NCBI GenBank assembly: GCA_046563655.1
Contig: JAJCTO010000011.1
Coordinates: forward strand, 434,001 to 498,000
Source: Yuukianura sp. NJ FZ-2021
Lineage: Eukaryota
Reading direction: 5' to 3'
Length of the DNA: 64,000 bases
This document shows positions 5,242 through 32,776 of the stretch, piece by piece. The position numbers and the translations under genes are program-made. Numbering within the stretch: position 1 is the stretch's first letter; each line of letters begins with the position of its first letter. The notes under the pieces were generated by a model. It was not told the origin of the DNA, did no database searches, and worked only from the letters and a program-made list of their open reading frames with translations.

Positions 5242-6926
5242 AGCTTAAAATAAAAAATAACTTTAAACTTTTGAAAAATTTCGAAATTAAAAACATTTCC
5301 AGGATTTCCAATAAAAAAAAAGATCCAGAATTTATACCACCAAAACTTTTTTTTGTCTAAAAACAAAAGCATTTTCTAGAAAAAAAAACGCATAAAAGCA
5401 ACTTACTGAAACTTTTTTTTTCTAAAAATTTATCCAAATGTACGAAAAAGTTTTGATTATTTTAAGAAAACTGGCTGCGTGTGGTAGAAAATATGTTGAA
5501 CTCTTGGAAAAAATGAAAGAGTAAAAAAAACTCCTTCTGTTTTTCAAGTCCCTTCAATTTTTTTTCCTGAACTTTTCATTTTTGAAATTGAAGCCTTAAT
5601 TTGGCACGCAAGGGAGAAGGGCCCTTTGAAAATATTTTCGACTTCTGTCTGTGATGATTTTGAAGAGTGGCCACTCGACTGAAAGAATCTGTTGAACATT
5701 TCCAAGAACTTTTAGAGCGAAGAGGGCCATTGAAGGGGTCATTTGAGCAATTGACCCAGAAATTAAAAATTCAAACCGTTTGCTTCTGCTACCAAAACAC
5801 TTTTCTTACGCACGCAAATGCTTCAAAAATTCTCAAAACCCGAATTTTGAAAATTCTGGAGAAAAAGAAATTAAACAGTGCTGTTATGCCTTCCAATTCC
5901 ATGTTTTGTACCTAGAACCTGGTAGCTCAATGGTTAGAGCTCTTTCAGAATTATGGGTTCGCGTCCTACTATGTTGGTAATTTTTTCTCCACTGTGATTC
6001 CTTGTTTCTCAAGACATTTGAGCCATGAACTTCACATATAGTACATAATTGTAATCTCTTTGAAATTATTCTAACCACGAGGTTAGGGTTTTTTTTTTTT
6101 TAAATTTTTTTACGTTGTGTGAACTATTTGCATGTTGCACATTTTCCCAAATTCCTTCAATTATGTCTTTGGCAATCCAGTTATCCAGTTTTTTGATTGA
6201 TTCCGGACTGAGTTCTTCTTTCCATGAGTCTACTTTTCCTTTTCGAATGAAACCTGTTAATGGGTTGCCATGGACTTTTGCCAGCGGTTCATACGTGTGT
6301 TCTTTGTTCACTGTACAATTTTTTTTTCATTGAGTCGAAGCTCAGGTGCTCAACAAGTTTGTCAATTTGAGCATCCGTTTAACATTTTCCAAAAAATGAA
6401 GCTGTTTTCCTTACGACTGTCGGCAAATCCTTAAAATATGAACAGTTCAACTTTTTTACATAAATTTAGTTTGAAAAAACCTTGCCATATAGTTCATTTT
6501 AATTGTTTACTTTTTTCATTTCTTCGTAAGTTAGAAACAGAATGTTGGATTCGTTACGGCGGGGCCAGAAATCGCGGAGGTAAGGCCAATACGGCAAATG
6601 CAACCCTGAAAAAAAATTCATATTTGAAAAATTTCATATTCAGCATTTGAAAAAGTGAGCGAAACTGGGACCACTGCATGGCAACAATGTAGAATTTTTT
6701 TGCTTTTACCGTAATCAGCTAAATATTCTTCAATAAACTCATCTATGGTCCCCTCCCGGTGTTTTATTTTAGGCCGAATTCATGTCTAGTGAACTCTCTC
6801 TCCTCAAACTAGACATAGCGTGTGTAGATTGGTTCCTGTCGGTTGACCTGTGCCTAAACATTTGGACACGATGTGGGTCTCCTACTATTTTTCAGACTCC
6901 AGTAGACATGAATTCGACACAGAAAA

Positions 6927-7486
6927 TATGAGGCTTGAGCAGTGCCTCTCTGCACTGCTCCAGCCTCACAATGAAATAAACAAAAACAAACCCAAAACCG
7001 ATGATCTTTGTGGCTACGATTTATTTTAAATCGTAGCGAACGAAACAAACAAACCCTAACTAAATACAAAGGAGCCCTTGTGGCTAAACTAACGGGCCTT
7101 AAGGGCCATAACCAACCGAAATGCGGATCCGGGGGAAGGGAGGCCAATCACTGGCCACAACAAGCCAATCACTGGCTACGGCCAATCACTGGCCACCACA
7201 AGCCAATCACTGGCTAGGCCAATCACTGGCCACACGCTGATCTGACCTGGTTGACCTCCAGTTGACCGGGGAAGCAGACTTGTGGCTGGACGGAGCAAGG
7301 CAGAGCTGTTGACGGCGTGGCTGCTGCATGAGAAGTGCTGCTGGGTTCTTCTGTCGGCTCTGCCGACTCCAAAAGGAGAGGGAGACAGGGGACAAACACT
7401 TATGGGCATTCGCCCTAACTAACTAATTTAGTTTTAATTAATCTAAACACTTAAACTAACTCTCCTATGAGGCCCTTGACCTCATA
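6927..7486 (-). repeat. 3' LTR of Gypsy element
   Basis: TATGAGG...CCTCATA; no differences seen by eye from 13882-14441. Confidence 0.95.
7142..7232. promoter_or_regulatory. Five tandem GCCAATCACTGGC (CCAAT-box) repeats in the LTR; second copy at 14097-14187
   Basis: Direct reading; matches the RRCCAATCA NF-Y-type consensus. Confidence 0.6.
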
Positions 7487-7500
7487 TCACCCCCTCCGCG
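7487..7500 (-). other. Polypurine tract of Gypsy element
   Basis: CGCGGAGGGGGTGA on the minus strand, immediately before the 3' LTR. Confidence 0.75.
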
Positions 7501-7822
7501 CCATGAAGCGTTGCTCCAAGGTTTGGACGAGGGCTAAACTTAGCTCTAGTATGAACAAAACAAAAAAAATATTTGCAAACTGAAAAACAGAGAAAGAAAC
7601 TAAGCCAATGGAACCGACTATAAACAAAATTGGCAAACTAAACTAAACAATTGGAATTGACTATAGGCAAAATTGACAAAAACTAGTAACTATCAAGAAA
7701 CAATGGAAAAATGAACAAAAATTTGCAGAAAACAAGAAATAATTTTGGAAATGGTGCTGAAGGCACTTAACTAAGGGGCTCTAGCCCCAGCTTAACTAGC
7801 AGTAAACACAAGATCGTCGTTT

Positions 7823-8413
7823 TTAAGGCTGTCGAGCATAACGGGGATTGAATTTCTTGTTGGTCTTGAATCTGTTCTGTCTTCGGACAGTACAGGTTCC
7901 CGCAAAATGGCCGTATTGGCGGCAACGAAAACAACGAGGTGCCGGCTGCGCTGGAGGCGGAGGAGGAGGCGGCGGAGGAGCCCTTGGAGGTAATGGAGGA
8001 GGAGGAGGCGGAGGTGGCGGTGGCGGTGGAGCCCTTGGCGGTTCTGGAGGAGGAACTGGACGACTCTGGACTGTCACTACAAGGTCTGGAAGTGCTTCCG
8101 GTGACGGAGGAGAAGGAGATCGTGGGCGACTCCAAAAATAAATGCTCGGGGCATACTTCTCGCGCAGAACCGAGTCCAAATGCATGAGTTTGCTCGTCGT
8201 GAGTCCAGTTTTATGCCAATTCGTAGGAATAGCAAGGAGGATAGCGGGATTTAAGTTCCGTTTCGCGTAATGAACGATTTCTTTGTCCGAAGGCTGACGA
8301 TTCAGTAGGCTTTTCAACTTCGCAATCAGTCGGAGCAGGAAATCCTTAACTTTTTCGCCTTCCCATTGAGGAAAATTTAATTTTTCTTTGACTGAACGTT
8401 GTTGAGAAGCCAT
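7823..8413 (-). CDS. Gypsy ORF3: Gag-like protein (capsid-CTD-like segment, polyproline tract, CCHC zinc knuckle)
   Basis: 196 aa; QWEGEKVKDFLLRL (MHR-like), long Pro runs, CFRCRQYGHFAGTC and a basic tail. Pyrimidine tract plus CAG ends 1 nt before the ATG. Confidence 0.8.
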   Translation of the reverse strand: MASQQRSVKEKLNFPQWEGEKVKDFLLRLIAKLKSLLNRQPSDKEIVHYAKRNLNPAILLAIPTNWHKTGLTTSKLMHLDSVLREKYAPSIYFWSRPRSPSPPSPEALPDLVVTVQSRPVPPPEPPRAPPPPPPPPPPPPLPPRAPPPPPPPPPAQPAPRCFRCRQYGHFAGTCTVRRQNRFKTNKKFNPRYARQP

Positions 8414-8441
8414 ACTGAAAACAACAGAAAAGAAACGAAAA

Positions 8442-11400
8442 TCAGTGAACTGTATTACGACTACGCAAATTGTAATTGCTAACGATAGGCTCAGGCTTAG
8501 TTTTTGGGACTTTAGAAGGCGGTACAGGCGCTGAAATGATCGCTGAAGGTCTCGAAAAGTATCGTTTCAGGTTTACGATGTTATGACGACCTGCCGATTC
8601 GTCGGAATCGCAGAAACTCAGGCCGTAAACTAAGTCAGTGACCTTTTCAGAAATCATATAAGGGCCTTCCCACTTAAACGCAAATTTCTTCATGTAACCC
8701 CTGGCCTTGTCCGACTTCTCGTGAGTACGCAAAAGTACCAAATCGCCAAGTTGAAACGCATCTGAACGACGATGCTTATTATAATGTTTTGCTTGCGACG
8801 CTTGAGCTTTTTCTAAATTCTCTCGCGCTAAACGGTAAACTTTGGAAAGACGCTCGATCAAGGTGAGTTGATACTGCGTCCACTCAGCAAAATCGTCGTT
8901 TTCAGAGGCGTCAAGTGCAAGATCAAAGGGAGTTGACAATTCGCGACCAAAATTAAGCATGGAAGGGCTAAAACCCGTAGAATCAGAAATTGCGGTGCGT
9001 AGAGCCATGGCAACCTCCGGAAGATTTTCGTCCCACTTCGAGTGCTTACGCGCGACATAGGCGCGAAGAATAGCGATGACATTACGATTTACGCGCTCCG
9101 TGATATTTGCTTGCGGATGATAAGTCGAAGTGTACTTTAATTTGACGTTCCATGTTTTGCAAAGCTTTTTGAAAAGATCGGAAGTGAATTGGGAACCGTT
9201 ATCGCTTAATAAGGCTCTGGGACGTCCGAAACGGCAAAAAATTTCCTGCTCGACTTTTTTAATGATCAGAGAAGTGGTAGCTTCTCTGATTGGGAATAAC
9301 TCAACCCATTTAGTAAAATGATCAGTGACCACAAGCAAGAAAGTATTTTGACGCTGTGTTTTTGTAAGGGGCCCAACTAAATCCAATGCGAGCATGTCCC
9401 AAGGACCTCGAGTCTGAACACTTTGCAATTCACCAACCGGTTTGGAAGTAGGATTCTTAGTACGCTGACAAATGTCGCAAGACTGAACAAACTTATAAAT
9501 GTCTTCGTGCATACCGAACCAAAAGACGCGCCTTAAGAGACGATAGAGCGTTTTGCGAAAACCCATGTGACCTGACTCTGGTCTATCATGAAAATAGCTC
9601 AAAACCTGAGAACGTAAAGAACTTGGAATGAAAGGGAGCTTTCCAGCGTACTTTCCTAAGCGATAAAGGACCCCGTCGTGCACTACGAAGTCTTTACCAA
9701 TGTCCGTTAGCAGCGCTTGGACTTCTAAGTCTTTACTTTGCTCTTCTTTGAGCTGATCCAATGAAATTTCGCTTGTAAGTGAAAGAAAAATGGCGGGTGA
9801 AGAACAATTTAATGGAAAATTAAGTTTTTCTCTGTGATCTTCACAATCCTCGCTTTCTCCCACGGGAGCTCTTGACAGTGCGTCTGCGACAACGTTAAGT
9901 TTACCGGGACAATGCGTTATAATGGGCTGAAAGTCCTGAATCCTAAGTGCCCACCGTGTAAACTTACTGTTGACGTCTTTCATTTTGTCTAACCAAACCA
10001 AAGCTTTATTGTCAGTCTCAAGGCGAAAACGTTGACCGTCAATGTAATGTTCAAATTTCTTTAACGCAAACAAAATGCCAACACACTCAATTTCGCTTGA
10101 ACCGTAATTTTTCTCAGCGTTATTCAAAGAGCGACTCGCAAAAGCAATGGGACGTTCAAAACCGTTAACCTCCTGTGCTAAAACCGCGGATACTCCGATT
10201 CGTGACGCGTCCGTCCGAATAATAAATTCGTTAGAGAAATCCGGGAAAGCCAAAACCAAATTATCCGAACAAATAGCTGCTCTGAGCTTTAAAAAGGCAG
10301 ACTCCTGCTCATCTGACCAAACAAAAGAAACATCCTTGTGCAATAAACGGTTCAAGGGCTCACTCAGCTCCGAAAACCTGTCGACAAACTGCCGATACCA
10401 TGAACAAAGACCAAGAAATTGACGTACTTGTTTAGGCGTCGTCGGCCTGGGAAACTCCGAAACAGCAGAAATCTTTTCCGGATCTCTCTCAATTCCATTT
10501 GGAGAGACAATGTAACCTAAGTACTTAAGAGTAGTTTTGCCAAACTCGCATTTTTGCATATTTACAGTGAGCCCGGCAGAACTCAATCTCTCAAAAACGT
10601 ATTTGAGATGCTCTAGATGTTCTTTCCAAGAACTTGAATAGACGATGATGTCGTCTATGTAACCGTCAGCAAAGCGACCTCGCGCTGTACCCAAAATTTT
10701 ATTTACAAGACGTTGAAAAAGAGAAGGGGCTGACTTTAAACCAAAAGGCATCCGAGTAAACTGAAACTTTCCTTCATGACAAATGAAGGCAGTGTACTTG
10801 GCACTGTTTGGGTCCATGGCGACTTGCCAGTAGCCCTTTTTCAAATCAATAACCGAAAGAAACTTAGCTTGACCTAAGTTGTGAAAAAGGTAATCTAATC
10901 TAGGAATAGGAAACGGATCATGAGGAAGGCGAGCATTTACTTTTCGCAAATCTAAAGTAAACCTCCATGACTGACCTTTGTCTTTGGTATGCATATATAC
11001 AGGGGAAGCCCACTCAGAATCAGAAGGTTCAATGACTCCCAGTTTCAACATTTCCGAAATGTTGTCTGAAATGAGTTGGCGTTTGAAAGGACTCACAGGA
11101 TAGGGTTTTGAGGAAATGGGAGGTCCGGGAGACGGTGTCAACTCACACTTGACCCAATCAGTTTGGCCTAACTGAGAGGAGAAAAGTGATGGGAAACTAT
11201 CGGTCAAGCTCTTAAGTTCCTGAGTTTGCGTGTCACTGAGGCCAAGCAGTGCACACAAATACTCACGGTTTTGAAAATCGTACTCAAGTCGACCTCTTGT
11301 TTTAGTTCCGAGAATAGAAAAAGTACCGTCATGAAAATCTGGGACCAAATGGTAATTCCGAATAAAGTCAAGTCCGAGAATAATAGGAAACGGCGGAGAC

Positions 11401-11792
11401 TGGAGCACATGGACTGTTTGAATGTATTCGTCCGTATAAATTTTGAAATGTAGCTCACAAGTTCCGGAAGTACTGATTGTACTGGAGTCACCGATCGTTA
11501 ATTGAATTTGCCCTTGCTTAATCACCAAACCGAGTTGTTTAGCCAAAGAAGCAGAAATAATCGAATAAGTAGACAATGAATCTAAATGGGCAGAATGAAT
11601 GGAATGTCTGATTTTTAATTTAATGGTGGGAGCTGCTTTTGAAAAATCCGATTTTGGAAGGCTAGGGAACTCCCGTCCTACCTTCCTTGTAGGTTTGGCG
11701 GATTTGGAACTCTCTGTGGAAGAGAATAGACAGTAACTTCTACTCCCTTCATGCATAGCTCCACAAAAATAATGTGAGCGATGATGTTCCAC
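8442..11792 (-). CDS. pol: Gypsy Pol polyprotein (protease, RT, RNase H, integrase)
   Basis: LDSLSTYSII (protease site), ILGLDF, DLKKGYWQV, MPFGLKSAP, YIDDII, TDASRIGVSAVLAQ, H..GHMG..CDIC, LDLVGP / SDNGSQF / TERVNR (DDE) and WEGPY. Uninterrupted frame. Confidence 0.97.
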   Translation of the reverse strand: MEHHRSHYFCGAMHEGSRSYCLFSSTESSKSAKPTRKVGREFPSLPKSDFSKAAPTIKLKIRHSIHSAHLDSLSTYSIISASLAKQLGLVIKQGQIQLTIGDSSTISTSGTCELHFKIYTDEYIQTVHVLQSPPFPIILGLDFIRNYHLVPDFHDGTFSILGTKTRGRLEYDFQNREYLCALLGLSDTQTQELKSLTDSFPSLFSSQLGQTDWVKCELTPSPGPPISSKPYPVSPFKRQLISDNISEMLKLGVIEPSDSEWASPVYMHTKDKGQSWRFTLDLRKVNARLPHDPFPIPRLDYLFHNLGQAKFLSVIDLKKGYWQVAMDPNSAKYTAFICHEGKFQFTRMPFGLKSAPSLFQRLVNKILGTARGRFADGYIDDIIVYSSSWKEHLEHLKYVFERLSSAGLTVNMQKCEFGKTTLKYLGYIVSPNGIERDPEKISAVSEFPRPTTPKQVRQFLGLCSWYRQFVDRFSELSEPLNRLLHKDVSFVWSDEQESAFLKLRAAICSDNLVLAFPDFSNEFIIRTDASRIGVSAVLAQEVNGFERPIAFASRSLNNAEKNYGSSEIECVGILFALKKFEHYIDGQRFRLETDNKALVWLDKMKDVNSKFTRWALRIQDFQPIITHCPGKLNVVADALSRAPVGESEDCEDHREKLNFPLNCSSPAIFLSLTSEISLDQLKEEQSKDLEVQALLTDIGKDFVVHDGVLYRLGKYAGKLPFIPSSLRSQVLSYFHDRPESGHMGFRKTLYRLLRRVFWFGMHEDIYKFVQSCDICQRTKNPTSKPVGELQSVQTRGPWDMLALDLVGPLTKTQRQNTFLLVVTDHFTKWVELFPIREATTSLIIKKVEQEIFCRFGRPRALLSDNGSQFTSDLFKKLCKTWNVKLKYTSTYHPQANITERVNRNVIAILRAYVARKHSKWDENLPEVAMALRTAISDSTGFSPSMLNFGRELSTPFDLALDASENDDFAEWTQYQLTLIERLSKVYRLARENLEKAQASQAKHYNKHRRSDAFQLGDLVLLRTHEKSDKARGYMKKFAFKWEGPYMISEKVTDLVYGLSFCDSDESAGRHNIVNLKRYFSRPSAIISAPVPPSKVPKTKPEPIVSNYNLRSRNTVH

Positions 11793-12181
11793 CTTCCACG
11801 AGACAAACCCACACCAATTTCCGGCATGTGAACAGCGGCTCCAGTCTCAAGAGCGCGTTTACAAACTGTCCGAAGCGCTACATGCAGAGCGTCATAATCA
11901 ATGGGGACTGGTTCCTTGGGATGTCCCTGGGCCACCATATTTGCAACTTCAAGATTTTGAGAAACCGGAATGAATTGAACAAAACCTTTTTGAATTGGAG
12001 CTTGGAGTTTCTTGTACTCTAACTCTGGAGCTTTAAATGCTTTGGAAAGAGAAAGAACAAAACCTTTTCCCCAAAAACCTTGATCATTGCAAATATGAGC
12101 CAAAATACCGCGCTTGGAATTTAAATTTGGTTGAGTAGCGTCACCGATAACGTACTGAATTTTAGTTTGTTTTGGAATCAT
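11678..12181 (-). CDS. Macrodomain protein (ALC1/TARG1/SCO6735-like class; putative ADP-ribosylhydrolase); reading frame stays open upstream to 12412
   Basis: IQYVIGDATQP..ILAHICNDQGFWGKGFVLSLS..VANMVAQ..IDYDAL..AVHMPEIGVGLSRGRW..GVEVTVY: complete macrodomain motif set. ATG at 12181 in GCCATG context. Confidence 0.88.
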   Translation of the reverse strand: MIPKQTKIQYVIGDATQPNLNSKRGILAHICNDQGFWGKGFVLSLSKAFKAPELEYKKLQAPIQKGFVQFIPVSQNLEVANMVAQGHPKEPVPIDYDALHVALRTVCKRALETGAAVHMPEIGVGLSRGRWNIIAHIIFVELCMKGVEVTVYSLPQRVPNPPNLQGR

Positions 12182-12266
12182 GGCAGAAAAAACTGGATCC
12201 GAATTGGGAGAATTAAATGAAGACGGAAGAGCGACCTTCTCCTCTGAGTCACTCCTCCTTAACCTT

Positions 12267-13490
12267 TTAGGGCACCCCCAGAATTTTCTGGGCGGGAAAT
12301 TTACAGGTAGTTGCATAGTGCCCATAACGTTCACATCGAAAGCACTGGACTTGATCAATCGACCACTCTTTTGCCGGAGGCGGTTGACCAGAACTGCTAG
12401 GTCTAGGCCCATTCGTATAAGGAGGCCGACTTGTCCCAGGATTTGCAGGTGGGACTGAACTAGGCCCAGCAGGACGAGGCTGTGAATAGGAATTTGGAAC
12501 GTAAGGAGCTTTAGCCGGTTGCCGTGCGCCTGCTCTGTCCCTAAGTCTTTGATTGAATTCCGAAAAATCGTCAGAAGCTTGAGAACGAATCAAAGGTTTG
12601 TTTTCAAAACGTCGAGTTCGATTCAAATCGCATACAATTCTCTTCCCATGAGCAATGAGTTCAGCAATGTTAGTAGCTGGAGAAGATCTGAGCAAAATAG
12701 AAATTTCAGGAAGACAAGCGTTTACAATTCGTTCTCTAATCGTTTCACTCGAAGCGTCTGGGACTATTCGTTTATAAGAATTGGCAACGTCCCATGCAAA
12801 AGTTTCGAAAGCCTCCGAAAAGAATTGCTTTTTAGCGAAAAGATCCGACAAAAGTTTATCTTTGGATTGACCAATCCCCTCATAATTTAGAAAAGCGACT
12901 TTAAATTCATCCCATGTCGCGATGTTGTTTTGAATGTCTAGCCACCAACGCAAAATATCCGAATCTCTCGGAAACATTCGGCTAATTAGAACAAGTTTTG
13001 ACTCTTCGTTTAAGTTTTTAAGAACAAAATAATCTTCTGCTTCTTTGAAAAAGGAAGTAATAGGAATTCTTGGCGTATATTTGGGAATAGGAATCACAGG
13101 TGCCTGTTCTACGTATAGCACTTGTGGAACGGTAGGCGGCTGTACGTTAGGAGCGGGTGCGGTAACCGGAGCGGGCGCGGCCGGAGCGGGCGCGGCGACA
13201 ATTTGCAACTGTGCACGCATATCATCCATGGCTGTCTGCATTGTGAGTAATTGTGCACGTAAACTGGCAATCTCCGCGTCTTTCGCATCGTTAGTCGCCA
13301 TGTTTGCAAATGAATCTAAAAACTCTTCCTCCGATTCTGTTTCCGATTTAGGAGTAGCGGGAGAAACCGTTAAAACAAATGGGGGTGCGCTGCTTGCACG
13401 CACGGGTGTGAGCGGTCTGAGCGCGGGCGGAGCGGGCGCCTCCGTTTGAGAATTCGTTAATTCCTTACTTTTACTACGAGTGAGGACCAT
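12267..13490 (-). CDS. gag: Gypsy Gag
   Basis: MVLTRSKS.., coiled coil, retrotrans_gag-like WWLDIQNNIATWDEFKVAFL..KQFFSEAFETF, C-terminal CFRCERYGHYATTC. Confidence 0.92.
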   Translation of the reverse strand: MVLTRSKSKELTNSQTEAPAPPALRPLTPVRASSAPPFVLTVSPATPKSETESEEEFLDSFANMATNDAKDAEIASLRAQLLTMQTAMDDMRAQLQIVAAPAPAAPAPVTAPAPNVQPPTVPQVLYVEQAPVIPIPKYTPRIPITSFFKEAEDYFVLKNLNEESKLVLISRMFPRDSDILRWWLDIQNNIATWDEFKVAFLNYEGIGQSKDKLLSDLFAKKQFFSEAFETFAWDVANSYKRIVPDASSETIRERIVNACLPEISILLRSSPATNIAELIAHGKRIVCDLNRTRRFENKPLIRSQASDDFSEFNQRLRDRAGARQPAKAPYVPNSYSQPRPAGPSSVPPANPGTSRPPYTNGPRPSSSGQPPPAKEWSIDQVQCFRCERYGHYATTCKFPAQKILGVP

Positions 13491-13869
13491 GAAACAACCA
13501 AAAAGAAACGAAAAACACAAACGTAGGAATTAAGATTTAATTAGGAATCATGAATTACGCATTTAAACTTTTGTACATTCAGTTAATAACTTACTTTCTG
13601 AAAAATGAAAAGTGAAATCGGAAAATTTAAGTTGGGGTGCGGAACGCGCTCAAAAGAAAAATTGAAACCAAAAATGTGACTTTAACACATACGCGCAAAA
13701 CCGTACCGTTTCATACGGTTCATGTACAAAAGGATGGGGACCATGCCTTTACCACCCCCAGAGCGGCACCTCAACCGATTTTTCTCCGAATTTAACGATG
13801 AATCGATGATTAATCACTGATTAATCATCGATACCCATGAAAACAATGACTGAAGGGGCAGTTAATGCT

Positions 13870-13879
13870 CGGGGCACCA
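13870..13879 (-). other. Primer-binding site TGGTGCCCCG (probably elongator tRNA-Met)
   Basis: 2 nt inside the 5' LTR end; complementary to ..CGGGGCACCA, the 3' end of animal elongator tRNA-Met as I recall it. Confidence 0.65.
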
Positions 13880-13881
13880 GA

Positions 13882-14441
13882 TATGAGGCTTGAGCAGTGC
13901 CTCTCTGCACTGCTCCAGCCTCACAATGAAATAAACAAAAACAAACCCAAAACCGATGATCTTTGTGGCTACGATTTATTTTAAATCGTAGCGAACGAAA
14001 CAAACAAACCCTAACTAAATACAAAGGAGCCCTTGTGGCTAAACTAACGGGCCTTAAGGGCCATAACCAACCGAAATGCGGATCCGGGGGAAGGGAGGCC
14101 AATCACTGGCCACAACAAGCCAATCACTGGCTACGGCCAATCACTGGCCACCACAAGCCAATCACTGGCTAGGCCAATCACTGGCCACACGCTGATCTGA
14201 CCTGGTTGACCTCCAGTTGACCGGGGAAGCAGACTTGTGGCTGGACGGAGCAAGGCAGAGCTGTTGACGGCGTGGCTGCTGCATGAGAAGTGCTGCTGGG
14301 TTCTTCTGTCGGCTCTGCCGACTCCAAAAGGAGAGGGAGACAGGGGACAAACACTTATGGGCATTCGCCCTAACTAACTAATTTAGTTTTAATTAATCTA
14401 AACACTTAAACTAACTCTCCTATGAGGCCCTTGACCTCATA
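13882..14441 (-). repeat. 5' LTR of Gypsy element
   Basis: Copy of 6927-7486, adjacent to the PBS. Confidence 0.95.
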
Positions 14442-15069
14442 AAAAGAATGCATTCCATCCTGTAAACAATTACGTATACAGAATATGCAATGCATTGTGT
14501 CTAGTCCGGTACTCCAAATCTTTAACTTAACTTTAACCCATCATCCGCGTATCATTTGGAAGGCTTAAAATGTTTCAACTGTTACACTGGGTCTATGTTT
14601 AACAATAAATTTAAAAAAATTGTTAGTCCAAGGTGAAAAAAAAAGGCCCATTTTGAAGGCTAACTTGGCTGAAAATTGACAGGCGACATAGAATAACCTC
14701 AAACGAGTTCGGAAAATGCCGGAAACGTTAACGTTAACGCCAGAGCTACCGGAATTCCTTTGTCGCTAATTTTTTTTTTGTTTTTGCAATTTTTCTTCTC
14801 TAAATTCAGATTAGAGCAAATTCGCACGTTTTTTAAGCAAAGGACGTTTTCACTTGTGACTTTTACTCTGATGCTGAGGTCATTTAATTGCGGAAAATTC
14901 CAACTGCAATTAATTGTCAAGACGCAATTAATTGTGAAACTGTAATTAATTTTTCTTTCTTTTTTGCAAATGTAGTATTTCCAAATAATGTCTCCAAGGA
15001 TAAACAAACTGCCAAAATTTCCGAAAGGAAAGAACAAAAGTAAAACACCTGGATGGAAATACCAGTTTT

Positions 15070-17429: not shown

Positions 17430-18548
17430 TTACATACCAAATCCAGGGCGAGGAGGAGGGCAAGGCAATTCTTCAGTGACCATCATGGATTTCCAATCTA
17501 AAAAATTGGGAAGGGAACGGCGGAAACTGTTCAGGAGAAGAAGACGGCGACGAACAGTTTCTTCGGTTTCACATCCAAGGGTAAAGTAGATCTGGAGTTG
17601 GGGGTCCAAAAGGTCAACAATATCCTGGCCTCGATCTGGGTAAACTTTGGCGGGAAAATGGAAGTCCAGGTACTGTTTTGCCAAACGAACAAACTTCGAT
17701 GGGTTTGATCCAAGTGAAAAGGAGGGCTTCTTCGGTGTCACGTCTTTCTTGAAGCGAAAGTTCTGGAAAAGGCGAAAACGGGGAAGTTGAACTTGTTCCT
17801 TGACCAAACCGGGCTTGTCACAGGAGAGTGCAGAAAGTACAATGGCATCATGACGTGGGGCTGGAGGCTCCGGGTCACTAAATCGGGCGGGGCAAGGCAA
17901 TCCACGCTGAACCATTAGCGCTTCCCAATCAAGGAAACTAGGCAAGGAGTCACGGAAGTCATCTAGGAGCTTCAACTTCTCAAGAACTTGGAGTCCGTGA
18001 TCAACATGGGAAAGGAAATACTTTTGGAGAGGAGGGTCTATGTCATTGATCAAAAGACTGCCGAAGATTGGAGTGTAGAAGTCAAGTTCGTGGTAGACCA
18101 TGGCAATCTCCCATTCCTTCTCCCTCATCCAGCTCTCAGGAATATCTCCGAGGCGGAAAATCTTACGTCGATCACCTAAAGTGTGAGAAAGAGGAAAGAT
18201 GCCTGTAACTGGGAGAACGGGCATGGCGACTGGAGTAGGGGGGACAAAAACGGATTCGGGGTCTCTCAAACTGACATAAATAGGGTTAGGATTAGGTACC
18301 GAATTTAGGACAGGAGGGATGATCACAGGCTCTGGAAGTTCTGGAGTAATCGGAGGTGACGGAGTTTCAACTTGAGGTGGCGATGGAGCGTGGTCGGTTT
18401 GGGTGGAACAAGTCGACTTCGATGGGGTTCCTGTGGATTGGGGGAATCGGGAGCTGCTGCTGGCAAACGACGAATGATTTCCTGCAGCATCTGCAAAATT
18501 CCGGAAAGAATCGGGGCTAGGGAATCTTCTAATCCACAGGAAGAACAT
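17430..18548 (-). CDS. Hypothetical protein with Pro-rich linker and two copies of an unrecognised ~55-70-aa domain
   Basis: IDPPLQKYF..EKLKLLDDFRDSLPSFLDWEALMVQRGLPCP and LDPQLQIYF..RRLLLLNSFRRSLPNFLDWKSMMVTEELPCP. Confidence 0.7.
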   Translation of the reverse strand: MFFLWIRRFPSPDSFRNFADAAGNHSSFASSSSRFPQSTGTPSKSTCSTQTDHAPSPPQVETPSPPITPELPEPVIIPPVLNSVPNPNPIYVSLRDPESVFVPPTPVAMPVLPVTGIFPLSHTLGDRRKIFRLGDIPESWMREKEWEIAMVYHELDFYTPIFGSLLINDIDPPLQKYFLSHVDHGLQVLEKLKLLDDFRDSLPSFLDWEALMVQRGLPCPARFSDPEPPAPRHDAIVLSALSCDKPGLVKEQVQLPRFRLFQNFRFKKDVTPKKPSFSLGSNPSKFVRLAKQYLDFHFPAKVYPDRGQDIVDLLDPQLQIYFTLGCETEETVRRRLLLLNSFRRSLPNFLDWKSMMVTEELPCPPPRPGFGM

Positions 18549-18790
18549 GACGGGCTTCTGGATAGTGGAATTTGGCGTTGATTTGGACTAGGCGTAGCGT
18601 CGAATTGAAGAGACATCAATGGGACAGGCATGATTCCTTGCGTAGATCGGTGTCGATTTCTGTAGCGGGGGCAGGTTCTCTTGATATGGCCAGGAAATCT
18701 GCAAAAATTGCAAATGGGTCTTCCATCCGGGGTACGTAGATTATTTGAGCTCATCTTGGGTGAATTTGCGTAGATAGGCTGCTGACTCAT
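18323..18790 (-). CDS. Nucleocapsid-like CCHC zinc-knuckle ORF
   Basis: RTPDGRPICNFCRFPGHIKRTC; overlaps the next ORF in the -1 frame. Confidence 0.7.
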   Translation of the reverse strand: MSQQPIYANSPKMSSNNLRTPDGRPICNFCRFPGHIKRTCPRYRNRHRSTQGIMPVPLMSLQFDATPSPNQRQIPLSRSPSCSSCGLEDSLAPILSGILQMLQEIIRRLPAAAPDSPNPQEPHRSRLVPPKPTTLHRHLKLKLRHLRLLQNFQSL

Positions 18791-21648
18791 CTCAGGAAAT
18801 CAAATCGAATTAACTGAAACTCAAAAGAAAAGATTTTAGCAAAAGAACCAATAATTGTGAAATCAGATTTCCCAAACTTTGTAATTAATTAGGGTTTTGT
18901 AGTTTCGTCCTGCAAAAAAAGAAATTGTTAAAAGGAACTGAAGGATAGGAGTGTGGGGTACAAGGGAACAGGCGTTGCTGTAGTGCAACTGCGTTTTGCA
19001 ATTTTGCAATTGCAATTGCAAAAGTAGTGGTGTTTCGTGATGGTTAGAGGAGACGCTGCTGAAAAGAGGGGAAAAGAGGGAAAGAAGAGGGGAGATCCGC
19101 AGCTAGCGTGTATTCCGAAGGAGGGGGTGGACTCCTTCAACCTCCTCACCACCTCTGAGCGTCCATGACGGCTTCCTTCCTTCCACGCGTCCCAGCCACC
19201 ATCTTGAATTTTCCCTCTTTTGTGGCTAAAAATCGATGATTCGGGGTCAAACTGACCTCAAAACTGCCTAAAAATGGGGGAAACGGGATGGTGGGGCAAG
19301 GACAAATGAAAGGATGTTCGTAGGGACTCAATAAACCACCGTAATCCACCAAAACTAACTTGCTTTACCAGAAAAAAACGCTAAACTGCTCTACCAACTG
19401 AGCTCCACGCCACTGGCGTGACCTCTGACCTGCAATGGGGATAAAACGGATAGAGGGGGAGGGGGCAGCAATCGTACGAGGCGAATTTCTGGCTACAATG
19501 CCTACATTTCAAAAATCAGAGGTTTACTTTACCGATATTCGCTGAACGGCGACGGTTACTGCTTGAATCCGGCAATGTAGGTCAGTGGTGAGGTCGTTGG
19601 CAGTTGCTTCCGGTCCCTGAGTTGAACTCGAAGCAATCGTCCACCACTTGTGAGCTGACGGAAAGCTCAAGAAGACAAAAGAAAAGACGACGGAAGACCG
19701 ATGATGATGATGTTGAGCGAAGCGGAGATGAAACTCCGTTTATTTAACTTTAATTGTAATTGAAAGACAAAAGACGGGAGCTAAGACTTGGAGATGTTGA
19801 TGTGTGGAAAGGGGGGAGACGACTGACTGACGGAGACTGACGAGAGAGACGGAGATGAACTTCTGGTTGACTTGAGGGTGGGTTGCACAGGCTGTAACCC
19901 CTCACTCCTCCGGAAAATTCTCACAGTGTCTAGTCCAGTAGACACAAAAAGGGATCAAGTTTGTGGGTAGAAGATTCAACATACTACTGTACACAGCCTG
20001 TACCCAATTTCATTCACCGGGCTTATAGCCGTTGATGACTCTTGTGAGATGAAAAAGTGTTACGCACTTGTCTTTTGGATTCGTGCTATGTAAACAATTT
20101 TCGGTTTCTTCGTTAAGATTTGTTTTGGTAACAATGGCAACGGAAGGTGACTTTTGATGTAGCGTGGCGACGGCGTCTCTTGAATAACGTCTATCGACGG
20201 CCACGTCCTCTCCGGATCCATAGCATTTAGTGTATTCTCTCCTATTATTTGAACTCTTGATCGAAAATTTGTTTAGGAATCAGGGTTAAATGAAAACAAA
20301 AAATATCAAAATTTCATAAATCTTAAATTGTTTTTTTTACTGTAGAAATGGAAATCGAATTGACAGCGGCATCTGAGCTCTCTCGTAATCCAAGTTATTA
20401 GTCAAAAGCCAAACCATTTCTTGCGTCCATGTTGTGCCTCAAGTTAAAAAATAGATTAAGTAGACTTCAAAGATTAAAAATGTGTGTTCTCAATTTCATA
20501 AATTGTGTTTACGCATTGTATCTAACCTGATCTTGGCATTGACATTACCCAAACATCATCTTGGCGCACTTCCATGTTGCGAATGGAGTCGTAGTTCTCT
20601 GCGTAACTAACAGGCAGACAAGTTCCACTTGGTTTGTACTTCACAAGGTGTCCAGGGTTAAACATGGGATGTTCATGGGTCAAGAATTTGGCAACCAATT
20701 CTTTGTTTTCAAATTCATCGTACAACATTTCAAACTGTTGTGTATGGAGTAAGCTTTTGTTTTTGTGGATGTGGTAGTGGTAAGTACACAAGACCAAGGT
20801 GGATAAACAAAGAAATACTTTTCGTTTAACAGGTTAGGCAATAACTCGAGCTTTAAGTTTTTTGCGAAAAATTTTCAAAATTGAATTCACCTAGTTTTAA
20901 TCTCGGTTGGCATGGAGATGGAACAAAAAACTTAGATGGCTTTCGACATGGCAAATTCAAAGTAAAAAAAGGAGTAAAAGACAAAACAAAAAACGTAGAA
21001 AAAACTTTGGACTCAAGATTTTTCGAAAACAGGACTTATCGCCAAACCTGTTAAAGGAAAACGATTTCGGATTTCTGTCCAACTTTGGATTTTAACTACT
21101 TACGCATGAAATTTATTTGGGTTAAACTAATATCCCACATAAACCATAATCACTCGAGCTATTAATAGAATTTAAAAGATTAGATACCACAGAATGAAAA
21201 ATTTTAGTTTCAAACGGTGTGTATTTAGTGTCATGAAACAAGATCACCTTGGTTGAATAACATTCGTTTTTCGTCCTACTTGTATTCTGTGAAGCAGGAA
21301 AATTCCAAACCACGGTCAATTCGCAAGCACCTTTTTTGAGTTTTTGAGCGAGGCTTGTTTATCAAAATTTTCAAAACAAGGTTCCCACCATTCTAAAAAG
21401 CTGGTTTTTTAGCTACAGAAGTCACGGCGCCCACAGTTCTCAATTCAATTTAATAGCTTATGCTATGTTAGGTTAATTTAAATTAAGTTTATTACGTTTT
21501 TTCATATAGTGTCTTGTTTTCAAAATTTTGAAATTGAAATAGGTTACAAAGCTTACGAATTGACTGCTAACGAAATTGACCTAGAACATTTTGCGAAGCT
21601 AACTAAAGCATTGGAAATTATTCTAAACACGAAGTTTTGTTCATGTTA

Positions 21649-23989: not shown

Positions 23990-26900
23990 ATACTGACTTC
24001 ACGTGCTAGGGACAAAATAATATTTGGCACTTTTGGAGCGAAGAAGTGCGGGTGAAAGAATTTACTTGCAGCAATGCAAGTTCCATTCCTCGTGGACATG
24101 GTGTTGCTTAGGCACGCAAGTACTTCTGAGATGAGGGGTTGAAAGTACGGAATGTTGTGTCCGGAAATTTTAGAGGAAGTAAGAAGATGTTCTAATTTTT
24201 TGAGTTGAGACGGAATTAGTCAGTTGAGATCCTCATTAATCTTCACACTCACGGGTTCCCTTTTATTCATTTGAAAAATAAAGCGTGCGCATCTTCTGTG
24301 AAGGGCGTCGATGCAGTTAAATGGTGAGGTTTTACAGTTTGACCAAATGATGAGCATGTAGCGAGGAATTGGAGTTACGTAAGAACTGATCATCAGTTTT
24401 CTATGTTTTTGATTCAAAACATGCTGAATTGGATATAACGACCACAGTACACTATTGCACTATTTTATCACAGTGACGCTATGTTCACACCAGGATATGT
24501 TTATTGTTTGGCCAAAGGACTTGAAGGGGGTTACACTTTCGATGATCGAGTCTCGGATTCTGAGATGAATGGAACCAATTTTCTTAATTATTTTTTCTTT
24601 ACCAGCCAGCATTGTTTTAGTTTTTTTGATGTTGAGGGCCATGTGGTTACAATGCATCCAATCGTCGATTTCACAAATCAGACTTTCAGCTCGTTGTATT
24701 AAGAAGTAAATTTTGTCAGGATGATCACCGATCACAATGTTGTTATCGTCGGCGAATAGGATTGCTGAGCCGTCAACTAGAAAGTCCAGTAAGTCGTTGA
24801 CCATAATTTTGAAAAGGAGTGGTCCAAGCACTGAACCTTGTGGAACAGACAGAATGGTTGGGGATGAAGATGAGTATTGATCATTAATTTTGACACTTTG
24901 CGTTCGGTTGCATAGGTAGGACTCAAACCATTTTGTGTTAATCTTGTATCATTTCAATTTGTCAATTAAAATTCCCTTGTCAACTGTATCGAACGCTTTT
25001 TTTAGGCCGAGAGAGATCACCAAACACACTTCACCCCGATGCACATGTGAGTAGATTAATTGTGTGAGTGGAAGCTGAGCCATTGTGGTTGAGTAATGTT
25101 CCCGGAATCCGAATTGAGCACGGTGAAGTATAGAGTACTTGCTTAAGAATTCAGTTAGTTGGACGAGAGCAAATCTTTCCATGAATTTTGCTAATGCTGG
25201 TTGAAGGAAAATTGGACGAGTCTCTGATGGGTGTGCTGGATTCGAGAATTTTGGCAGTGGTACTATAACAATAGAGTGTTTTAGGTCACACGGGAAAACA
25301 CCAGAGGAGAAGCTGTCGTTAATTATCTTCATTAAAAGGTATGAAACCCGCTTGTGAAAGAGGGGCTAGCTTTTGTGGTAATGTATACGAACACACATAA
25401 AAAAACGTATCACTTTTGGGAACCCGTTTGAGATACATTAGTATCATTTATTTTCATGAAGCTATCTTGCATTACCATTTGCCCAGGCGGAAATCCCTTA
25501 AAACAACCCGTCCACCTGATTAATGTTTAACGTGTAGGAAGGACATGACCATTCGAATGACGACATGTCACTTGCCTGTGTTTGGTTTAATTTTATGTGA
25601 GGTCATCGCTCTGGGTCAAGGGTCAAATGTCACAGGTTAACATGTTATACATCAATCGACTGCATTTAGCCTCTGCTTTCGAATGACATGTCACTTGCCT
25701 ATGTTCAGCTTAATTCTATATGAGGTCACCGCTCTGGGTCAAGGGTCAGAGGTCATAGATCATCGTATCATACGTCAATCAACTCCTTTCAACCTCCCCG
25801 TTCAAATGATATATCACATGCCTATTTTCGGCTTAAATCTGTGTCAAGTCACCGCTCTTGGTCAAAGGGCACAGGTCAATGTGTCGTACATCAATCGACT
25901 GCGTTTGACCTCTGCTTTCGAATGACATGTCACTTGCCTTTGGTTGGTACGATTTTGTGAGGTCATCGCGCTACGTCAAGGGTCAAAGGTCATAGGTCAA
26001 AATGTCAAATAGCCTATGCTCTTTGGGGTGACCTCACAAAGAAAGGGACACCTCATTTGTCCCAATCGGTCCAGTAGTTTCGGAGGAGTAGCAGGACTTT
26101 GATTTCGGACTTTGATTTCGCATGAGGTTACTGCGCTGGGTCAAATGTCAAAGGTCAGAAGTCATAATGTGATACGTCAATCGACTTCATTTGACCTACC
26201 CTTTCGATTAATATATTACATGCCTATGTTTCCTCTGATTTCGCATGAGTTCACTGCTCTGGGTCAAAGGTCAAAGGTCAGAGGTCATCATGTGAAACGT
26301 CAATCGACTTCATTTGATCTACCCTTTCGATTAATATATTACATGCCTATGTTTCCTCTGATTTCGCATGAGGTCAGTGCGCTGGGTCAAAGGTCAAAGG
26401 TCAGATCAACATGTGACATAGCCTACGCTCTTCGGGGTGACCTCACGAAGAAAAAGACACCTCATTTGTCCAAATCGGTCCAGTAGTTTTGGAGGAGTAA
26501 AGGAACAGACACACACACGCACACACAGATAAACAGGGTCTCGATTTTATATAAGTAGATTTGATTTCTAATAGAAGGAGCACCGACACTGTGGGCTAGG
26601 ACTCAATTAGGAAGTCCAAATTGGTCTTTACTTTTGAAATATTTGTTTTTGACTTTTTTGAAAATGTGAATGTATCGATTGGGTTTAAGTTGAACTGCTC
26701 GGTCGGCGTAATGGTTGATGTTGGCTGTCGTGGACATCGAGTAGAAACAATTTGTGTTGTTGTAATCGACGTGTAGTAGTCGTTGATTTGATCCACATTA
26801 AGAGGGAGTTGTCCAATCATGGCTTTTTTTCGGTTTAATTTTCTGAATCGCTTTAAATGGACCCAGTTTCTCGATATCAAGATTTAATGCGTCCTTTCTG

Positions 26901-31680: not shown

Positions 31681-32007
31681 ATGGCACAACAGTTAGGTAG
31701 TGACTCTGAAAACGAACATTCCCAGCTGGAAGATGAAGTTGGAAGCTGTCCATGGGTAGCGAAGGCTAAACCATTTTCGGAATACGAAAAGACTCTGCTA
31801 CTCGAGCTGGTAACTGAGCACAAGGCAATCATTGAGGACAAAAGAACAGATTACGGAACAGACAATAAGAAAAAAGAAATCTGGACAAAAATTAGCTCAA
31901 AATTTTCGAGTGACAATGGTGTCCAGAAGCGGTCAGCACCTCAATTGAAGAACTGGTGGTTGAACTCCAAGAAACGAGCAAAAAAGACGTACAGCATGAT
32001 ATCTTAA
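31681..32007 (+). pseudogene. Harbinger Myb/SANT-like DNA-binding protein, C-terminally truncated
   Basis: FSEYEKTLLLELV..IIEDK..KKEIWTKISSKF..RSAPQLKNWWLNSKKRAKK. Confidence 0.8.
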
Positions 32008-32776
32008 ATACTGTTTTGGAATTGGTTTAATTCTTGATTTTCCAATTTTAGCGATAAGATGCAATTGTCAAAGATTCTACTATCGTGTGCTGATCCATAC
32101 CATCGGGCGACAAGATTTGTGAAATTCAGATCCCCGTCACAAACTGCTTGAACGTTAATTGAGAAATGTCCCTTCCGGTTTCTAAATAGTTCAGCATCGT
32201 CACCTCCCGGACTGTTTATTTTGACATGGGTGCAGTCAACTGCTCCTACTACTCCTGTTAAAAAAATTAATTTGCATGTAAAATAGCAAACATCAGTACA
32301 AATAACTATGTTAAACTTATAACTCACCAGGAAAACTAGCAATTTCGTAAAAACGTTCACGGACAGACGAGGAAACGAGGGGAACTTGACATATTCTGGC
32401 AACATTTTGGCAATAACTTTTCAGACTCGCTTGATCAATCGAGATACTGTCGATTGATTCAGAGTAGAGTAATCTCCGATGAGGTTTTGAAAGCTTCCGG
32501 TAGAGTAGAATCGTAGGACGGCCAAAAATTGAATTGTTGGAGGTAGTTGACAGCCTTTTTTTGTTCACTGACTAATTCTGGAGCAATTAAACGTATCACA
32601 TAGCTAGCAGTATCTTTGAACATATGGTACCTTTTTTTAAACTCAATTCCATTGTAAAATTCTAGGGGATTTTCACGATCCTTCAATCTGATCAACGGTA
32701 CTTTTCTGATTAGTTGACGACGGTGGAGTCGTCTACAAAGTCGTCTTAAGCGAGAAAATGAAGTTTCATTAGCCAT
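32004..32776 (-). pseudogene. Harbinger (HARBI1-like) DDE transposase remnant
   Basis: GVVGAVDCTHVKI, NRKGHFSINVQAVCD, ARWYGSAHDSRIF; intron ~32258-32327; internal lesion at ~32460 and loss of the C-terminus. Confidence 0.88.

Follow-up and report, generated by a model that had tools for sequence, protein, structure and literature searches.

What is a macrodomain of bacterial type doing between the gag and pol genes of a eukaryotic retrotransposon? The question is raised by a stretch of 64,000 nucleotides from Yuukianura sp. NJ FZ-2021 (contig JAJCTO010000011.1, positions 434,001 to 498,000), here called the window; all coordinates below count from its first letter. Its minus strand carries a complete long terminal repeat (LTR) retrotransposon of about 7.5 kb (14441-6926) with a macrodomain reading frame at the gag-pol junction. 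With a little more confidence than doubt, we propose that a Gypsy lineage acquired a macrodomain of the SCO6735/BT1257 type at this junction, and that the domain would act there as an ADP-ribosylhydrolase against host marks. Macro domains in retroelements are already known from fish retroviruses.

A sequence-only reading of the locus had described a complete macrodomain open reading frame (ORF) with five motifs. All of them (YVIGDAT, AHICNDQGFWGKGFV, VANMVAQ, VHMPEIGVGLSRGRW and VTVY) were found in the minus-strand translation, and the best matches among solved proteins reach an E value near 1e-30 by sequence and a TM score of 0.87 by structure. In a phmmer search of the PDB sequences, the domain matched two entries of BT1257 from Bacteroides thetaiotaomicron (2afc, E 7.2e-31; 2fg1, E 1.8e-30) and one of SCO6735 from Streptomyces coelicolor (5e3b, E 5.6e-28); these entries scored 110.6, 109.3, and 101.2 bits. 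ALC1/CHD1L (E 3.4e-7, 33.7 bits) and TARG1 (E 0.054, 16.8 bits) were distant, and the PADLOC model of DarG matched the domain weakly (E 0.0018, 15.8 bits). By these comparisons, the closest relatives of the window domain are the SCO6735/BT1257 subclass of ALC1-like hydrolases, as the likeness to SCO6735 and the ALC1-like class named in the sequence-only reading had anticipated.

Structure comparison agrees. An AlphaFold model of the domain, computed from an alignment of 102 sequences (pLDDT 93.7, pTM 0.86), is predicted to adopt the three-layer alpha/beta/alpha macrodomain fold and superposes on solved macrodomains. The top Foldseek match was 2fg1 (E 7.5e-18, TM 0.87, rmsd 1.5). The entries 2fg1, 5e3b, and 2afc ranked first, followed by ALC1, DarG, and TARG1 and then by viral MacroD-type domains; chikungunya nsP3 was among the matches. 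At E<=0.001 there were 221 PDB chains, and among the matches listed 36 of 36 were macrodomain-containing entries. SCO6735 and BT1257 are thus the best matches in both sequence and fold (TM 0.80-0.87), with about 45% identity and equal size. They differ from the window domain in being encoded by free bacterial genes, whereas the latter lies inside the polyprotein of a eukaryotic retrotransposon.

The host element is a Ty3/gypsy LTR retrotransposon, as seen from its LTRs, target duplication, tracts resembling a primer-binding site and a purine tract, pol order, and CCHC knuckle. Its parts are given below; three relatives recovered from metagenome contigs are called L001, L002, and L003.

13881-14441, minus strand: 5' LTR, a 561-nt block 100% identical to 6926-7486, with a 7-nt terminal inverted repeat
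13867-13879, minus strand: putative primer-binding-site-like TGG... stretch, two bases past the 5' LTR (read directly)
12267-13490, minus strand: gag, an open frame of 407 codons and the stop TAA (12269-12267)
12255-12286, minus strand: junction 1, with the gag stop on the position of the relatives' -1 slippery heptamer (three-frame comparison with L001-L003)
11678-12181, minus strand: macrodomain ORF, 167 codons from ATG to stop; domain proper about 12160-11723; frame open from 12589
11804-11810, minus strand: heptamer G_GGT_TTG, the sole in-register X_XXY_YYZ within the 169-nt overlap of the macrodomain and pol frames
11670-11700, minus strand: junction 2, with the macrodomain stop; the site homologous to the relatives' second heptamer is non-slippery
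8442-11846, minus strand: pol, 1134 codons, open, with protease-like region, reverse transcriptase (RT), RNase H, and integrase
7823-8413, minus strand: third ORF past pol, 196 codons from ATG, overlapping the pol end region, with a long proline run and a second CCHC knuckle
7487-7502, minus strand: purine-rich tract immediately before the 3' LTR (read directly)
6926-7486, minus strand: 3' LTR, 561 nt, 100% identical to the 5' LTR
6922-6925, no strand: target-site duplication of 4 nt (partner 14442-14445) and empty-site joint

The order of the Pfam domains in pol, protease-RT-RNase H-integrase, is that of Ty3/gypsy (Metaviridae) elements (RVP_2 0.0025, a weak match; RVT_1 2e-35; RT_RNaseH 3e-32; Integrase_H2C2 3e-20; rve 6e-14). 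Direct reading revealed a CX2CX4HX4C knuckle close to the gag end. No Pfam family was found in the window gag or in the third ORF; the latter belongs to the element, since family contigs in three sequencing runs cover it. The four frames (gag, macrodomain, pol, and third ORF) are free of stops. The macrodomain frame runs from an ATG at 12181-12179 to a stop at 11680-11678, and the interval given earlier for it, 11678-12412, corresponds to the domain plus part of the frame overlap with the gag end.

Two further observations concern the element itself. The protease-like region reads D-S-L or D-T-L (11560-11600, minus strand, and about 1380-1424 of L002); retroviral-type proteases usually carry D-S/T-G. 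Each LTR contains a short tandem duplication (7142-7233 and 14097-14188; 55-nt matches at an offset of 38 nt), and several small indels occur in this region among the family contigs.

Is the cassette particular to this copy? A word-based protein search returned three close relatives, at 65, 55, and 54% identity and on short contigs, followed by a plateau at about 45-50%. An exhaustive search of 1.84 billion protein representatives gave 3318 matches at E<=0.001 and added the candidates P0130-P0133. The scan of JGI metagenome contigs recovered DNA for three relatives, L001, L002, and L003, and each has a gag end with a CCHC knuckle, then the macrodomain, and then a pol start that aligns with that of the window. 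P0130 is a protein of 568 aa in a single frame, with Gag in the first 390 residues and the macrodomain in the last 150; the window Gag is 38% identical to its Gag part (E 2e-76). Searching with gag yielded 2 matches among 8000 scored candidates, and the Atlas search yielded generic Gag clusters, with scores no higher than 0.83. The same cassette therefore exists in other Gypsy copies, as gag-macrodomain-pol in L001-L003 and as a Gag-macrodomain fusion in P0130. A word-based search for the fused form yielded 2 bacterial-looking fusions among 271 candidates. Other architectures were also seen: P0131 joins a clade-like macrodomain to a G-patch-like stretch (residues 170-198; Pfam E 0.0096, under the cut-off), and P0129 is a tandem double macrodomain. 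A Nematostella vectensis protein with an SCO6735-like macrodomain fused to a beta-lactamase-superfamily domain is described in the available part of PMC9411070.

Beyond these elements, the subclass is one of bacteria and of viral contigs. In prokaryote contigs (one genome per species), at least 581 of 601 pattern-matched stretches encode a relative. These belong to at least 11 phylum-level groups, including Actinomycetota, Bacteroidota, Planctomycetota, Verrucomicrobiota, and Pseudomonadota, and among the matches listed their identity to the window domain is at most 49%. Of 482 pattern-matched stretches in IMG/VR viral contigs, 234 encode an SCO6735-type macrodomain, with at most 47% identity to the window. 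The subclass is common in IMG/VR contigs, a fact of possible relevance to DarT-type defence and to how the domain was transferred. Some of the IMG/VR contigs that carry it (L095-L174) exceed 300 kb.

We placed the domain among these sequences with three trees. In a FastTree analysis of 235 rows (11 candidates, 140 representatives, and 84 from loci L004-L087), 11 of the 11 candidates formed an exclusive clade (SH-like 90). An IQ-TREE analysis (LG+C20, quick) of 78 of the 235 rows, with 11/11 candidates, 42/84 loci, and 25/140 representatives, grouped 10 candidates at SH-aLRT 87, all 11 at 70, and the window with L001/P0002/P0124 at 98. The five rows linked to gag or pol (window, L001/P0124/P0002, L002/P0003, L003, and P0130) stayed together in all three trees, the third being a FastTree analysis described below. 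A single capture of the domain would be the simplest reading of the trees. A search of five genomes for an outgroup with the DarG model gave SCO6735-type genes and one very distant macrodomain. As for the bacterial derivation considered possible in the sequence-only reading, the part that holds is that the domain sits with bacterial and viral-contig sequences and not with ALC1 or TARG1; for the direction, the available argument is distribution.

Is the domain maintained? Over 146-147 aligned codons of the four DNA copies (window, L001-L003), there were 0 stops and one single-codon length difference. For the closest pair, window-L001 (67% aa identity), the nonsynonymous rate (dN) was 0.29-0.31, the synonymous rate (dS) 2.3-2.8, and their ratio, omega, 0.10-0.14. 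In the other five pairs dN was 0.27-0.53 and dS was saturated or not computable, so that omega there is bounded only as "well below 1". These values indicate that the domain is kept by purifying selection across the elements; the cassette is not decaying neutrally. That the domain is a neutral passenger, captured by chance and useless to the element, is hardly credible in view of these data. It is open and alignable (50-67% aa identity) while synonymous sites are saturated, its catalytic residues are invariant, and no fewer than five elements, sampled separately and with three frame layouts between them, have kept it. The GC and GC3 (third codon position) contents of the domain (0.43/0.33) match those of gag (0.46/0.36) and pol (0.43/0.41); the capture is old.

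If the domain is maintained, which activity is likely? The SCO6735/BT1257 subclass is characterised by hydrolysis of ADP-ribose linked to Glu/Asp and to thymidine. The excerpt of PMC9411070 available to us, on which all our statements about SCO6735 residues draw, reports that Gln85 of SCO6735 stands at the place of the catalytic Lys of TARG1 (Lys84) and DarG (Lys80) and that its mutation kills both DNA and protein activity. We numbered the phmmer alignment of the window domain with 5e3b by the residues of that source. The window copy keeps the equivalents of His24, Val25 (as Ile, a replacement that occurs in the subclass; PMC9411070), Asn27, Lys34, Gln85, and Gly128, the residues (His, Val/Ile, Asn, Lys, Gly) that SCO6735 needs together with the Gln. 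Across the clade, Asn and Gln are found in 11/11 members, His in 10/10, Gly in 10/11, and I/V in 8/11. The retention of the Gln of VANMxxQ, proposed from the window alone, thus extends to the whole clade. TARG1 and DarG differ in having the catalytic Lys (TARG1 also has Asp125). DarG is moreover paired with a DarT toxin gene, whereas the neighbours of the window domain are gag and pol.

The ALC1 macrodomain recruits its remodeler, and chromodomains steer chromoviruses. By analogy, the window domain could be a reader and not an eraser: it would bind ADP-ribose or poly(ADP-ribose) without hydrolysis and steer particles or the integration complex to ADP-ribosylated chromatin, for example at sites of DNA damage. 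We consider this improbable. ALC1 is the fourth-best fold match, the clade has remodelled its phosphate-binding and mobile loops, and the Gln is common to ALC1 homologues and SCO6735 (PMC9411070, excerpt). On the other side, sequence and fold are much nearer to the active hydrolases of BT1257 type and SCO6735 than to ALC1 (110 vs 34 bits), and every residue whose mutation kills SCO6735 is kept. Known Gypsy targeting domains sit beside integrase, whereas this one lies between gag and pol. The macrodomain of ALC1/CHD1L is C-terminal to a Snf2 ATPase; here there is no ATPase, and the flanks are gag and pol.

The loops of the clade also bear on the substrate. In SCO6735, the mobile loop is five residues longer than in TARG1 and DarG and bears Lys89 and Lys93; this longer, lysine-bearing loop is the basis of high activity on single-stranded DNA, and the Lys89 mutant lost DNA activity and gained protein activity (PMC9411070, excerpt). 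We compared the 11 clade rows with 224 other rows. The mobile loop, from the catalytic Gln to the next conserved Tyr, is 10 residues long throughout the clade (11/11); among the others it has 13-14 residues in 181/224 rows and 10 or fewer in 5/224. The clade mean of K+R in this segment is 0.55 vs 2.76 in the others, and that of D+E is 1.55 vs 0.86. The long Lys89/Lys93-type loop, one of the features that define the subclass, is therefore not kept in the clade (0/11). A second segment, from Y48 to G58 of the window protein, has 9 residues in 11/11 clade members; in the others the mode is 14 (76/224).

These changes speak to the possibility that the enzyme acts on nucleic acids and not on proteins, removing ADP-ribose from the cDNA or RNA of the element, either thymidine-linked, as added by DarT-type enzymes, or on phosphorylated ends. 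Reverse transcription exposes single-stranded DNA, and the excerpt of PMC9411070 presents the ready reversal of thymidine-linked DNA ADP-ribosylation by SCO6735 as a unifying activity of the ALC1-like class. However, the DNA activity is tied to the Lys89/Lys93 loop, which in the clade is 3-4 residues shorter and poor in basic residues, and no host DNA ADP-ribosyltransferase is known here. Activity on thymidine-linked DNA is less likely because the Lys-bearing loop is shortened in 11/11 clade members, and we give a nucleic-acid substrate a low probability, as we do the reader function. We infer that the retrotransposon clade may have moved from DNA toward protein substrates.

How is the domain expressed? 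The sequence-only reading had called it a stand-alone ORF, a description that does not apply to the relatives. There is no start codon ahead of the domain in L001, L002, or L003; in all three (3/3) a step of -1 leads from gag into the macrodomain frame and another of -1 from there into pol, and in P0130 the domain is fused in frame. By sequence, the family would have two layouts, with the domain in its own -1/-1 frame (L001-L003) or in every Gag (P0130). The junction overlaps of L001-L003 are 16-85 nt long, 78 codons in total. In 4 of the 6 overlaps the stop closely follows an in-register X_XXY_YYZ heptamer, with a few bases between them; the heptamers are C_CCA_AAA, G_GGA_AAT, and, in two overlaps, G_GGA_AAA. 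The background is 7 heptamers in 1541 codons of the window gag and pol, or about 0.35 expected in the 78 overlap codons.

The two junctions of a copy resemble each other. In L001 and in L002, junctions 1 and 2 are near-identical direct repeats at equal distance from the stop (0/2000 shuffles each); the likeness is non-significant in L003 (308/2000) and in the window (137/2000). A GGAG-N10-YTCC pattern about 25 nt downstream is common to 8/8 junctions, and the post-shift peptides are alike. We read this likeness as a sign that the gag-pol frameshift cassette, possibly together with a protease site, was duplicated to either side of the inserted domain. Betaretroviruses express gag-pro-pol by two -1 frameshifts, with a dUTPase in the middle frame. 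The arrangement of L001-L003 appears analogous, with three frames, two candidate slippery sites, and an accessory enzyme in the middle. It differs in that the middle frame holds the macrodomain and no protease, the protease-like region being in pol; in that the junctions of the L001-L002 type look duplicated; and in that junction 1 of the window is +1.

The window copy has a layout of its own. Its gag and pol lie in one frame, the macrodomain is +1 to gag and pol is -1 to the macrodomain, and the gag/pol frame contains 16 stops across the cassette. The window gag is displaced by one base after the knuckle, since it is the third frame that holds a gag tail like that of the relatives. Where the relatives have their second heptamer, the sequence is non-slippery, and a shift at G_GGT_TTG (11810-11804) would cost the domain its final 40 residues. 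Only in the window copy does an ATG, with a purine at -3, stand ahead of the domain. This copy might be read through a +1 slip where gag stops or through separate initiation at the ATG, or it may be silent and mobilised by sister copies. Removal of the cassette by splicing was considered and rejected: a pyrimidine tract and CAG are present near the domain end, but no in-phase donor was seen by eye before the gag stop.

To see other copies of the family, we compared window 6500-14900 with the Logan contigs of four public runs (X1, X2, X3, and X5), through which alone copy number and sister copies are visible. There were 583 matching contig pieces in X1, 515 in X2, and 141 in X3, with identities from 99% or more to below 90%. 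Hundreds of pieces at all identity levels mean that the element is a member of a multi-copy family in two organisms. Contigs of the empty site, joining 6922 to 14442 with 7519 nt skipped and 4 shared letters, were found in X1 (1), X2 (2), and X3 (1); one of those in X2 (record 10) has 107 and 134 nt on its two sides. The insertion is therefore not fixed. With its identical LTRs and an empty-site contig in the same sample, the window element is young, and its gag and pol are open, in agreement with the sequence-only reading.

The same contigs give glimpses of sister copies. Two X2 contigs and one X5 contig diverge from the window at 12268. By eye, their sequence goes on with a canonical in-register heptamer and a gag-like tail that stops where that of the relatives does. 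One extra letter relative to the window, somewhere within 12225-12617, is present in two diverged contigs (X1 record 8 and X3 record 23). From both observations, copies with the usual layout seem to coexist with the window copy. Length differences were also noted here: one X2 contig skips or replaces 298 nt of the gag tail (12197-12496), and a 52-nt skip with one letter between occurs in X1, X2, and X3 (12465-12518). Variation within the family seems to be greatest in the gag tail and linker.

The cassette might then be silent in the window copy, uncoupled by its altered junctions, copied with the proteins of sister copies, and open merely through youth. The displacement of the gag frame relative to the heptamer frame of the relatives, the alteration of both heptamer positions, the three contigs diverging at 12268, and the two one-letter-longer contigs are all as expected for such a copy. 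Yet gag (407 codons), the macrodomain (167), and pol (1134) are free of stops, and the purine -3 ATG ahead of the domain is specific to this copy. A Pro codon followed by a stop is the form of known +1 sites such as those of antizyme and prfB, and the gag stop with its preceding Pro codon has this shape. Silence of the window copy seems to us unlikely, though a good deal less so than the reader or nucleic-acid alternatives. Even this doubtful case would touch the window copy alone and leave the family-level reading unaffected.

For the family, then, the proposal of an acquired ADP-ribosylhydrolase can be set out as follows. A Ty3/gypsy lineage would have acquired, probably in a single event, a domain of the SCO6735/BT1257 subclass of macrodomains, whose other members occur in bacteria and IMG/VR viral contigs. 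Placed at the gag-pol junction, the domain would be produced within the polyprotein, either in frame with Gag or through a -1 slip at the gag end followed by a second -1 slip on leaving the domain. A fraction of ribosomes would make these slips. The domain may travel into the virus-like particle with Gag or Gag-Pol, from which the protease of the element could release it. As a mono-ADP-ribosylhydrolase, it would strip the marks of host ADP-ribosyltransferases from the proteins of the element, or, less likely, from its nucleic acids, and so favour replication.

Several results weigh against this reading. With E allowed up to 10, Pfam-A assigned a family neither to the 303-aa frame nor to the 159-aa domain; NCBIfam gave no match to the domain at E up to 1. 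The macrodomain identity proposed from the sequence is thus recovered by phmmer and Foldseek and missed by both profile libraries. PF01661 is precomputed on some homologues, and P0132 scores 0.003 with it, under the cut-off. Since the usual domain libraries overlook it, annotation of repeats probably misses many cassettes of this kind. When 80 viral rows were added (FastTree, 315 rows), a core of 9 candidates was kept at 84 and P0004 and P0131 fell outside; P0004, P0131, P0132, and P0133 are known without genomic context. The sister group of the clade shifts between trees. All trees are unrooted; the movement from bacteria to the element is suggested by distribution, with no donor named.

Further points of this kind come from the loops and the junctions. 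The shortened mobile loop has lost most of its basic residues. In the phosphate-binding loop GL-A-G-G, the second position is Arg in 10/11 clade members, a difference from SCO6735 and BT1257; in the other rows it is Gly in 210/224 and Arg in 7/224. In the HMP-R-IG motif, the window copy alone has Glu, at a site that is Arg or Lys in 214/224 of the others. With these changes, activity could be altered or lost. A substitution in the window copy falls on the site of the first heptamer and also creates the gag stop, which leaves no heptamer at junction 1, and the occurrence of G_GGT_TTG is within chance (56 codons; background 7/1541). Two of the six junctions of the relatives are non-canonical (G_GAA_AAA and G_GAA_AAC). 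The alignment of the 8 junctions gave a predicted helix of 4 bp with no covariation, which is no evidence for a frameshift-stimulating RNA structure.

Is there a precedent? RNA viruses offer one, their macrodomains being taken to counter host PARP-mediated defence. Those of coronaviruses (nsp3 Mac1), alphaviruses (nsP3), and hepatitis E virus are likewise ADP-ribose-removing domains in the polyprotein of a parasite. They differ in belonging to the MacroD-like class (14-18% identity, TM 0.65-0.69), in having another catalytic arrangement, and in not being retroelements. Another is given by the epsilon-like endogenous retroviruses of ray-finned fish, in which, according to a review (PMC4977317), macro domains occur as additional ORFs. 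They too are retroelements with a macro domain as an extra coding region, but, as far as that description allows a comparison, they are vertebrate retroviruses, whereas ours is a Gypsy retrotransposon with the domain at the gag-pol junction. In orchids, Ty3/gypsy elements have captured an m6A demethylase (ALKB) domain, again a rare, fixed extra enzyme in a Gypsy lineage with a proposed role in its own replication (PMC9289625, in the part available); enzyme and substrate are different, and the host is a plant.

The fish ORFs reportedly go back to work by Basta et al. in 2009. We know of no orchid ALKB element in which the enzyme has its own reading frame flanked by frameshift sites. In the full-text literature searched (subscription journals and repeat databases lying outside this scope), the text available gave no account of a Gypsy or other LTR retrotransposon that carries a macrodomain. 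Likewise, apart from the fish retroviruses, the accessible portions of PMC12957317, bioRxiv 10.1101/2021.11.30.470311, PMC9411070, and PMC4977317 describe no macrodomain in an LTR retrotransposon.

Transposable elements abound in the window as a whole. A sulfotransferase-like exon (6066-6326, minus strand; Pfam Sulfotransfer_1, 2.4e-5) lies some 600 nt past the 3' LTR, and the element may have inserted in or beside a host gene. Two overlapping long frames at 17430-18799 (minus strand; a CCHC knuckle in one, no Pfam family) are probably the gag region of another retroelement. Fragments of non-LTR-type RT occur at 24460-25365 (minus strand; RVT_1 1.7e-11) and 27847-30513 (plus strand; RVT_1 2.8e-22), and a DDE_Tnp_4 transposase fragment at 32004-32420 (minus strand; 7e-15). 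A 649-codon frame without a Pfam family runs off the window end (62052-63998, plus strand), and positions 48776-48875 are an assembly gap of 100 N.

What would the cassette mean for the family and its hosts? The strongest form of our proposal, that a Gypsy lineage carries an active ADP-ribosylhydrolase of bacterial type as an anti-restriction factor, expressed through a duplicated frameshift cassette, is one that we hold tentatively and at less than even weight. An accessory enzyme in its own frame between look-alike frameshift sites would be a way in which a foreign domain is inserted and its dose set with gag and pol undisturbed. The loop changes of the clade offer a natural experiment on what makes an SCO6735-type enzyme prefer DNA or protein. 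RNA viruses, for their part, typically meet PARP-based immunity with a macrodomain. If the proposal is true, retrotransposons would have reached the same counter-measure independently, with a different macrodomain class, and the ADP-ribosylation of retroelement proteins or replication intermediates would be a front-line defence in non-vertebrate hosts. That a lineage of retrotransposons has fixed and conserved a macrodomain of bacterial type points to a restriction of retrotransposition by ADP-ribosylation outside vertebrates, and the small, expressible enzyme gives a means to test that idea.

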